The notes beneath the pieces are model-generated. The model was not told where the DNA came from. It saw nothing but the letters and a program-made list of their open reading frames with translations, and searched no databases. From Candidatus Nanohaloarchaea archaeon (GTDB lineage Archaea > Nanohalarchaeota > Nanosalinia > Nanosalinales > Nanosalinaceae), in NCBI GenBank assembly GCA_047617985.1, contig JBLGBS010000003.1, positions 1 to 64,000 of the forward strand: a DNA stretch of 64,000 nt. Direction: 5' to 3'. How positions within the stretch are numbered: position 1 is the first letter of the stretch; each line of letters begins with the position of its first letter. The position numbers and the translations under genes are program-made. This document shows positions 4,260 through 40,397 of the stretch, piece by piece.

Positions 4260-6041
4260 TTATGTATTCCGGATAAGATTCTCTGCTTCCTGGACAGCTT
4301 TCTCCGCTTCCTCGCTGTTTTCTGCTTCCGCTGTTATTCTCAGTTTATGAGAGGAACCTGATGACCGGATCAGCACTCTTGAACTCTCTGACTCGTACTT
4401 GATGCCGTCGATTTTCGACAATACGCGGAAGTTTTCTTCCACTTTCTTCTTCAGTTTCTCCATCACCAGGTTCTTATCTTCCACCTTGACCGATTTCTTC
4501 TTGACCTCTATCTCAGGTAGTTCATCTATTATCTTCTCCAGATCGGCTCCAGCTAACATAAGACCGGAGAGGGTTCCAGAGTTATATGGAACGAATTTCG
4601 TGAAACAGTAATGACCGTTCGGCTCCCCTGAAAACTCTGCGTCTGTCTCCAGTGTTCTGTCGATCACAAACGGGTCTCCTACCCTGGTGTACTCTATTTT
4701 CCCGTATTTTTCGGCAGTTCTCCGAACTATCTCGGTGGAATCTATCGACGCCACGACTTTCTCAGGCTTAACCACCTCAATCAGGACAGCGAATACCTCA
4801 TCCCCGGTAAGCCACTCTCCATCGAAGTAGACCGCAACCCTGTCAGCATCCATATCGGTCGCTATACCAAGATCTGCATCCGATTTTTCCACTTTTTCTT
4901 CAACATGGCTTAAGTTCTCCGGCTTCGGGTCAGGGGGGTTGATATCCGGCTTTTCGGATGATAAGTTTTCGACTTCCGCCCCGAGTTCCTCCAGTATTTC
5001 GGCCAGTCTGCTCGACTGTCTTCCCCCCATGTTCTCCACCACGACTTTTCGGTCTACTTCATCGAAATACTCTCCAAAAAAGCTCTCCATCCTACTGAGG
5101 TACTCCTTGCCGTAGCTTTTCCGGGTCAAGGATCCTGTTTCTTGTTCTTCAAACCGGTTCTTCCGGAATATCTGCTTTAGCCTGTCAAGATCCTCGTTCA
5201 TGAAACCGTTGCCTTCCGGGTAGACAAGTTTGAAGCCGTTGAAGTTGAGAGGCATGTGAGATGAGCTTACCTGCACTCCTGTAGATTCTTCCTCTACTGC
5301 AGAAAATGCTGTGTAGTCTGTGGGGCCTGTCCCGCAGTCAATCACATGTATTCCCTGGGAGGTTAACCCTTTTTTCAGGCATTCCTTGAGATTTCCGGAT
5401 GTTTCTTTCGGGTCTTTCGTTAAAACTGCTTTTTCTTCCCCTCTTTCTGTTATAAGCCGTCCCAGTGATTCTCCAAGCCGGTAGGCGAAACTTTCGTTCA
5501 GCTCTTCCGGGTAACTTCCTCTTATATCGTATCTTTTGAATACTTTCTCGAAATCCGGAGGTGTCAAGTGTTCGAGTATCTTTTCGATGTTTTTGTCATC
5601 AGGATCAACCTGGATACCAGGGATGTTAACTCTTTCAAGCTCTTCCTTCCAGTCATCTACCAGGAAGTCAATGTCCGCAACTTCTTTGGTTCCCTCCGTT
5701 ATTATCTCGTATCCGTCCACATACTCTAGAACACCTGAGTACTGCAGTTTTTCCTTCTGAATTACAGGATCTCCACGTGTAACAACGATTACTTCATGCT
5801 CCTTCCTCAGTTCTTCCAGCTTTCCGACATCGCTGTACAGGTATTCACTGCAGTTTCTCATCTCGTCTAGGAGCTCTTTTTGATCGACTTCCATTATCTC
5901 TGCGTGTTTTTCCAGGTTGTAGAAACCGTCTTGTTTGGCCTGGTCGTATGTGTCGCCAAAACGAGGGAATTCTGTGTTTAGATCTTCCTTGAAGCGGTCG
6001 GTGTCGAACAGAACGCGGTCGAAGTCTATTCCTATCTTCAT
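4260..6041 (-). CDS. Phosphomannomutase/phosphoglucomutase (alpha-D-phosphohexomutase) with an N-terminal HAD-like extension of about 165 aa
   Basis: The PGM/PMM core starts at KRYDIRG. It carries the active-site Ser loop GVQVSSSHMP (a TASHNP variant), the metal loop ATDMDADR and the sugar-binding loop SGEPNGH. The N-terminus has a HAD motif I-like IGIDFDRVLFDT. It overlaps the next gene by 4 bp (ATGA). Confidence 0.8.
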   Translation of the reverse strand: MKIGIDFDRVLFDTDRFKEDLNTEFPRFGDTYDQAKQDGFYNLEKHAEIMEVDQKELLDEMRNCSEYLYSDVGKLEELRKEHEVIVVTRGDPVIQKEKLQYSGVLEYVDGYEIITEGTKEVADIDFLVDDWKEELERVNIPGIQVDPDDKNIEKILEHLTPPDFEKVFKRYDIRGSYPEELNESFAYRLGESLGRLITERGEEKAVLTKDPKETSGNLKECLKKGLTSQGIHVIDCGTGPTDYTAFSAVEEESTGVQVSSSHMPLNFNGFKLVYPEGNGFMNEDLDRLKQIFRKNRFEEQETGSLTRKSYGKEYLSRMESFFGEYFDEVDRKVVVENMGGRQSSRLAEILEELGAEVENLSSEKPDINPPDPKPENLSHVEEKVEKSDADLGIATDMDADRVAVYFDGEWLTGDEVFAVLIEVVKPEKVVASIDSTEIVRRTAEKYGKIEYTRVGDPFVIDRTLETDAEFSGEPNGHYCFTKFVPYNSGTLSGLMLAGADLEKIIDELPEIEVKKKSVKVEDKNLVMEKLKKKVEENFRVLSKIDGIKYESESSRVLIRSSGSSHKLRITAEAENSEEAEKAVQEAENLIRNT

Positions 6042-40264: not shown

Positions 40265-40397
40265 GGGGTCGTAGCTCAACTTGGGAGAGCGTCCGCCTCC
40301 AGAAATTTATGGAGGAATGAAGGTCTTGATTGACCTGATGATTAAGTCCTAGTTCGGAGCTAGCGGAAGGTTGCGGGTTCAAATCCCTCCGGCCCCA
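40265..40397 (+). tRNA. tRNA-Trp (anticodon CCA) with a 59-nt intron at canonical position 37/38 (intron 40303-40361)
   Basis: Exon 1 (40265-40302) is GGGGTCG-TA-GCTC-AACTTGGGA-GAGC-G-TCCGC-CTCCAG. Exon 2 (40362-40397) is A-GCGGA-AGGTT-GCGGG-TTCAAAT-CCCTC-CGGCCCC-A. The intron carries GGAGG segments complementary to the anticodon-loop CCUCC, as needed for a BHB helix. Confidence 0.8.

Follow-up and report, generated by a model that had tools for sequence, protein, structure and literature searches.

A candidate single-K-turn box C/D-type guide directed at C34 in the tRNA-Trp intron of Nanohaloarchaeota

The stretch of DNA analysed in this study (the window, 64,000 nucleotides) has a G+C content of about 45% and encodes strongly acidic proteins. 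It carries a tRNA-Trp(CCA) gene interrupted by an intron, and the gene adjoining this tRNA is matched best by Nanohaloarchaea MAGs and genomes, at 92% identity for the top match; the same gene also adjoins tRNA-Trp in some relatives. The low G+C content, the acidic proteins and these matches together assign the window to a nanohaloarchaeon. Parsing by stem complementarity placed the 5' exon at 40265-40302 and the 3' exon at 40362-40397, with the anticodon CCA (Table 1). The 59-nt intron left between them agrees exactly, in its limits and in its sequence, with the one transcribed in a first-pass annotation of the same DNA, which had also correctly read position 39 of the tRNA as G, not U. The Rfam tRNA match contained a 63-nt insertion within the anticodon loop, and no Rfam family matched the intron itself. 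ARAGORN did not report a tRNA-Trp at 40265-40397, and the 213-nt intron of a related locus (L046, 6014-6300) was not spanned by the Rfam tRNA model. Given these misses, tRNA-Trp may be under-annotated in nanohaloarchaeal genomes. The T-stem of the window tRNA-Trp (40373-40389) has a C50.U64 mismatch (GCGGG / CCCUC); the T-arm sequence is identical in L007, L008, L028, L029, L031, L036 and L047, and the T-stem is perfect in other nanohaloarchaea.

Table 1. Features of the tRNA-Trp gene and its intron (positions in the window).
Feature	Positions	Strand	Conservation or support
tRNA-Trp(CCA) gene with intron	40265-40397	+	Rfam RF00005, 47.7 bits; stem complementarity 16/17
Intron, 59 nt, canonical position 37/38	40303-40361	+	Stem parsing; 56 distinct nanohaloarchaeal homologues, 55-268 nt
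Predicted target, C31-G37 of the anticodon arm, CCUCCAG (C34 = 40299)	40296-40302	+	Guide pairing predicted by RNAalifold run without constraints
Candidate antisense (guide) element UGGAGG	40310-40315	+	N+7 to N+3 invariant in 56/56; N+2 is G in 55/56
D'-like box AUGA, non-bulged K-turn strand	40317-40320	+	AUGA 55/56, ACGA 1/56
K-turn C-stem hairpin: AGGUC 40321-40325, loop UUGAUU 40326-40331, GACCU 40332-40336	40321-40336	+	Covariation
3-nt K-turn bulge GAU (L1-L3)	40337-40339	+	L1: G 51, A 4, U 1; L2 A and L3 U invariant
C'-like box AUGAUUA	40338-40344	+	GA, UU and A invariant in 56/56; register from the abutting covarying stem
UCCU, complementary to AGGA 40313-40316	40347-40350	+	75% paired in 12 short introns; N+1 partner AU:3, GC:3
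GGAG (40356-40359), central helix of the bulge-helix-bulge (BHB) with C32-C35, then 3-nt 3' bulge C-U/A38 with the 3' splice site (slash)	40356-40362	+	GGAG 50/56, GGGG 6/56

Species-genome and metagenome collections were scanned with a pattern made from 5'-exon bases only, and intron limits were set by the complementarity of the anticodon, T and acceptor stems, so that intron content had no influence on retrieval. The scans yielded 65 nanohaloarchaeal-type tRNA-Trp genes with 56 distinct introns. All 56 contain the same module, which consists of UGGAG(G), one base, AUGA, a hairpin and (G/A/U)AU-GA-UU-A. The leader, the hairpin and the 3' region diverge freely, even where the 5' exons are identical and the 3' exons differ at one base.

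The hairpin of the module was found to have a C-stem of 5 bp, from A40321-U40336 to C40325-G40332, which directly abuts AUGA on one side and the 3-nt bulge on the other. Over 39 distinct core modules, this stem is 98.4% paired and each of its five pairs changes on both sides. The covariation score was 0.752 compared with 0.253 in shuffles, and none of 500 shuffles reached the observed value; moreover, sliding the register of the stem lowered the pairing to at most 68%, and pairs 1-3 are formed in all 56 introns. The stem had first been described as a 4-bp GGUC/GACC helix, to which the covariation adds A40321-U40336 as a fifth pair. Because the covarying stem abuts both AUGA and the bulge, the register of the K-turn is fixed, and the predicted pairs are G40340.A40320 and A40341.G40319 (sheared), U40342.U40318 and U40343-A40317 (Watson-Crick). 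Both GA dinucleotides, that of the bulged strand and that of AUGA, occur unchanged in all 56 introns. By its covariation and register the module is a K-turn, the sheared G.A geometry being predicted. At the level of sequence, the intron has the internal D'/C' boxes forming a K-turn that characterise an archaeal box C/D sRNA. Both boxes are off consensus, AUGA standing for CUGA and AUGAUUA for RUGAUGA, which counts against a guide function; the two deviations compensate each other, since a U-A pair takes the place of the consensus G-C (RUGAUGA/CUGA).

The string UGAUGA, which the first-pass annotation had taken for the C'-like box, is indeed present at 40336-40341, at a separation of 15 nt from AUGA and not 14 nt as had been stated. 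It was rejected as the functional box, which lies at 40338-40344. The first U of the string is a base of the stem and covaries with it, being C in most relatives; its G is position L1 of the bulge, which is variable, while the GA immediately downstream (40340-40341) is invariant. The comparison of the 56 introns likewise identified (G/A/U)AU-GA-UU-A, and not UGAUGA, as the conserved 3' box.

When the window intron was folded alone, no significant signal was obtained (z = -0.70), and the minimum free energy structure was a different, window-specific hairpin; the support for the K-turn is thus comparative. In this hairpin, C40325-U40331 is paired with G40340-G40346, which would sequester the C' box, and the pairing is not conserved in relatives. 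The weak single-sequence thermodynamics, and the fact that the UGAUGA string is a coincidence of the last stem base, could be taken to mean that the box-like strings and the complementarity arose by chance and have no function. This view is already refuted by the comparative data, namely the recurrence of the module in every distinct intron and its strong covariation; in addition, the composite module pattern matches the 64-kb window once, against 0.03 matches expected by chance.

The candidate guide element lies one base upstream of AUGA. Its complementarity to C31-A36 (40296-40301), proposed from the single sequence, holds, and the duplex in the window comprises 6 bp, from N+2 (C31) to N+7 (A36). 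The earlier placement of the C34 partner five nucleotides upstream of AUGA was also borne out by the comparison with related introns: G40312, at N+5, is complementary to C34, all 56 introns pair their N+5 base with C34, and the spacing to the box is constant. In most relatives the duplex extends to 7 bp, through G37, and it reaches up to 11 bp. The intervening base N+1 (A40316) is variable among relatives and unable to pair in the window intron, which fits the structural finding that nucleotide 1 of the spacer is unpaired with the substrate in C/D RNPs (PMC9670817). Characterised C/D RNPs use a guide duplex of 10 bp (PMC9670817), and the 6 bp of the window, like the 7 bp typical of its relatives, count against a guide function. 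RNAalifold run on 12 short precursors without constraints predicts a C32-G37/CUGGAG helix together with the covarying hairpin. Furthermore, the extra 5' domains of 33-124 nt present in long-intron relatives lie inside the loop closed by the guide helix.

The sequence CCTCCA occurs 43 times in the window when both strands are counted, so a 6-nt antisense element is not specific. This lack of specificity, together with the finding that the Haloferax intron RNP acts in trans (PMC4090602, PMC11408192), would suit an excised, possibly circular, intron that works as a trans-acting small RNA with its main target elsewhere, for example in another RNA containing CCUCCA. Such a role appears quite improbable. 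The complement reaches G37 in most relatives and the first bases of the intron in the Micrarchaeota type described below, an extent that fits the tRNA-Trp precursor only, and the element is always found within a tRNA-Trp gene.

The bases facing the candidate guide are also needed for splicing. The GGAG at 40356-40359, two bases upstream of the 3' splice site, is 100% paired but invariant. The 3' half of the BHB (anticodon stem, bulge and 4-bp helix) is canonical. On the far side of the 5' bulge, the helix is weak or irregular, A40304 being opposite C40355, which is compatible with the relaxed splicing motifs that DPANN endonucleases are reported to accept (PMC5829648). C32-C35 can pair either with 40311-40314 in the guide or with 40356-40359 in the BHB, and the two pairings are mutually exclusive. 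The first-pass annotation had suggested that one and the same GGAGG serves the guide and the BHB helix, so that both roles coexist. That arrangement was rejected, because the BHB partner must sit directly 5' of the 3' bulge, a place occupied by the separate 3' GGAG. In constrained folding of eight precursors, the guide-paired fold was equal to the BHB fold or 0-7 kcal/mol lower. Mutually exclusive folding patterns were reportedly described for the euryarchaeal pre-tRNA-Trp by Bortolin et al. in 2003, and the two exclusive pairings found here match what is said of that precursor. The UCCU downstream of the C' box offers a further pairing. The UCCU/AGGA helix may lengthen the NC stem of the K-turn and, in the splicing-competent fold, cover the guide; it is not universal, since at least five introns among the first 31 (L029, L036, L012, L004 and L044) lack it.

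A K-turn in this position might also be a structural or assembly element, for example an L7Ae site and perhaps the relic of a full C/D intron, that directs no methylation. Its roles might then lie in the folding of long introns, in the stability of the excised or circular intron or in the timing of splicing, and UGGAGG might be no more than an intron partner of the anticodon, in competition with the BHB. L7Ae binds many K-turns outside C/D RNAs, the intron has one K-turn only, and its complement to the anticodon loop is short (6-7 bp). In addition, the guide is partly complementary to the YCCY after the C' box, which would produce a rod-like fold continuous with the K-turn. In Haloferax, moreover, the intron and its methylations are dispensable (PMC11408192), so a conserved relic with a structural role only is conceivable. 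However, UGGAGG is invariant, while its YCCY partner varies and is missing in the introns just listed; the invariance of the guide is better explained by an invariant partner, the anticodon loop, than by the variable YCCY. A structural role also leaves aside the spacing, constant in 56 introns and in a second lineage, which puts C34, the euryarchaeal methylation site, at N+5. Finally, G.A pairs followed by U.U and then by a Watson-Crick pair are the signature of a C/D-type K-turn, and the pairs predicted for the module follow this order. A structural role without methylation is accordingly regarded as unlikely, although it is the principal rival to a guide function.

The first-pass annotation had noted that the guide is not preceded by a box C and that the 3' end has no CUGA box. 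The sequence confirmed this: neither RUGAUGA 5' of the guide nor CUGA near the 3' end was found in the 59-nt intron or in its short relatives. No hidden terminal C/D K-turn was found in the short introns, including versions that borrow exon bases, and the nanohaloarchaeal introns yielded no second guide to the 3' exon or junction (position 39), bar a 4-nt palindromic CUAG match in the window. Two box sets have been called the defining feature of methylation guides in reviews, and the single K-turn of the intron counts against a guide function in this respect (PMC9670817). Among the longer introns, a second UGAUGA-like box, (G/C/A)UGAUGA, occurs in 11 of the 20 whose C' box has over 40 nt downstream of it (L019, L028, L035, L042, L045, L046, L023, L052, L065, L092 and L102) and is followed by a 5-7-bp hairpin with the loop UCAG or UCAC and then by GGAG. 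Together with the GGA of the BHB GGAG, this box and hairpin may form a second K-turn; the registers are inconsistent, and two of the sequences have GGGG.

The long introns share further modules, for which no Rfam family was found. An insertion of about 50 nt with two hairpins (..ACCGGCUCG..CGGUUCGAGAAG-hairpin-CUUCG..) occupies the C-stem loop in L024, L026, L029, L030, L037, L045, L046 and L023. The 5' leader in L024, L026, L030, L033, L042, L045 and L023 has a 5' terminal hairpin of the CUGCUGUAGCAG type, and a conserved GAUGG..CCAUCUCU hairpin is also common to the long introns.

The same scans recovered seven tRNA-Trp genes of a Micrarchaeota/Iainarchaeota type (L009, L015, L016, L039, L040, L041 and L043), with introns of 68-71 nt. 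These have the layout GCUCUGGAGC-G-C(A/G/U)GA, a stem of 2-4 bp capped by a GNRA or UGUU loop, and GAU-GA, and C34 is again at N+5. They share the layout of the nanohaloarchaeal introns, with a guide, a single intervening base, a D' box (here CAGA/CGGA/CUGA), a short stem (here with a GNRA loop), GAU-GA and a GGAG for the BHB near the 3' end. The anticodon stem is closed by G31-C39 in the Micrarchaeota type compared with C31-G39 in nanohaloarchaea, and N+2 is C compared with G; likewise, the 4n-4b pair of the K-turn is C-G in six of the seven introns compared with A-U in Nanohaloarchaeota. The compensatory changes fall in exactly the guide/target and K-turn pairs that the proposed model requires. 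Since the target is invariant within the phylum, covariation between guide and target is confined to one position (31/N+2), between the two lineages, which counts among the weaknesses of a guide function.

The Micrarchaeota type differs in its guide duplex, which has 10 bp and runs across the exon/intron junction, and in a second, 10-nt complement to the 3' junction, which the nanohaloarchaeal introns lack. The second complement lies in the 3' half of the intron, where CUUUGGGUCU could form 10 bp with the 3' intron/exon junction AG/ACCCGAAG (slash, junction). It is followed by CUGU, CUGA, CUAA or CUGC, with no conserved D box and no box C, and looks like a degenerate D guide left without a usable D box.

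The proteins that would act on such an RNA were sought as well. Motif and HMM searches for fibrillarin, Nop5 and L7Ae, covering the window plus about 300 kb of loci, found them only in Micrarchaeota-type loci. In L009, L016, L039 and L043, nop5 and fibrillarin lie about 3-4 kb from tRNA-Trp; in L016, the nop5 ORF starts at about 307 and the fibrillarin ORF at about 1209, with tRNA-Trp at about 5384-5527 on the opposite strand. These four loci are closely related, so the proximity amounts to one evolutionary observation. For the Nanohaloarchaeota, the supplementary table of the cultivated Ca. Nanohalococcus occultus annotates a fibrillarin-like methylase (SVXNc_0365), a Nop-domain protein (SVXNc_0367) and L7Ae (SVXNc_0286), each with a numeric value. 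Fibrillarin and Nop5 are also used as single-copy marker genes that are universal in archaea. A search of 277 kb of nanohaloarchaeal DNA for conventional four-box C/D sRNAs gave none, which counts against a guide function of the intron.

Previous studies have established that the tRNA-Trp intron guides Cm34 and Um39 in Haloferax and other Euryarchaeota (PMC4090602, PMC7994747, PMC11408192). Compared with the euryarchaeal intron guide (Haloferax volcanii; Pyrococcus sR50), the nanohaloarchaeal intron interrupts the same host gene at the same 37/38 position, places C34 at N+5 of an antisense element that immediately precedes a D'-type box, and shows the same competition of guide duplex and BHB for the anticodon-loop bases. 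According to the literature descriptions, the euryarchaeal intron has four boxes (C, D', C' and D) and two guides, whereas the nanohaloarchaeal one has the internal D'/C' boxes only, on a 5-bp stem. The nanohaloarchaeal intron further differs in having no guide to position 39, a duplex of 6-7 bp, and AUGA/AUGAUUA boxes with a compensating U-A pair.

Closer in architecture are the half-mer C/D RNAs, made of guide, D box, stem-loop and C box, which work in vitro and, in the holo-RNP, are reported to resemble bipartite RNAs in both activity and specificity (PMC9670817); one such half-mer RNP has also been crystallised. These engineered, monopartite guides have the same order of 5' guide, D box, stem-loop, C box and 3' tail, with a single K-turn (PMC9670817). 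They are laboratory constructs with consensus boxes and guides of 10-12 nt, whereas the intron would be a natural, cis-acting and phylum-wide counterpart with a shorter guide. Another DPANN example is the tRNA-Met intron of Nanoarchaeum equitans, a stable RNA with a single box C and box D and a GC-rich hairpin that has been proposed as a C/D guide (PMC3491384). It belongs to another tRNA and another lineage, its function is likewise only proposed, and the likeness is drawn from its description (PMC3491384). In the literature, no description of a single-K-turn tRNA-Trp intron architecture in Nanohaloarchaeota was found.

In view of these data, the intron is probably a natural single-K-turn (half-mer) box C/D-type guide for the 2'-O-methylation of C34 in its own tRNA-Trp. 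Of the half C/D single guide positioned on C34 that the first-pass annotation had put forward, the antisense element, the N+5 geometry and the box pair closed by a stem stand on comparative grounds, while the box register and the stem length had to be corrected. In the proposed mechanism, the precursor would adopt, or be driven into, the fold in which UGGAGG (N+7 to N+2) pairs with C31-A36. AUGA and AUGAUUA, 3' of the guide duplex and held together by the 5-bp hairpin, would form the K-turn, to which L7Ae would bind and on which Nop5-fibrillarin would dock. The fixed distance from the K-turn would then set the ribose opposite N+5, that of C34, in the active site of fibrillarin for methyl transfer. 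Subsequently, the RNA would refold, the GGAG at 40356-40359 displacing the guide from C32-C35 to create the bulge-helix-bulge, after which the splicing endonuclease would cut and the exons would be ligated. The excised, possibly circularised, intron could act on in trans. The binding of the proteins, the methyl transfer and the order of these events are our inferences from the arrangement of the RNA.

A broader proposal, which we advance tentatively and judge to fall slightly short of even chances, is that the Nanohaloarchaeota, and the Micrarchaeota/Iainarchaeota in parallel form, use a natural single-K-turn C/D RNP assembled on the tRNA-Trp intron, acting in cis with a guide of 6-7 bp, to make Cm34. 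If true, the intron would be the first half-mer methylation guide of natural origin, and the bipartite architecture with two K-turns would not be obligatory in vivo. The need for two box sets in the cell is debated, both in terms of mono-RNP versus di-RNP and of half-mer activity, and a natural, conserved single-K-turn guide would provide a test case. The two mutually exclusive pairings offer a compact model for RNP-driven RNA refolding, and the module is a sequence signature of possible use to tRNA finders. Furthermore, a self-guiding tRNA-Trp intron would be common to Euryarchaeota and DPANN lineages; what has been described as a euryarchaeal system would then reach into DPANN groups whose genomes are very small. 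The retention of the intron in such small genomes argues for a selective value of Cm34 or of a switch between methylation and splicing.
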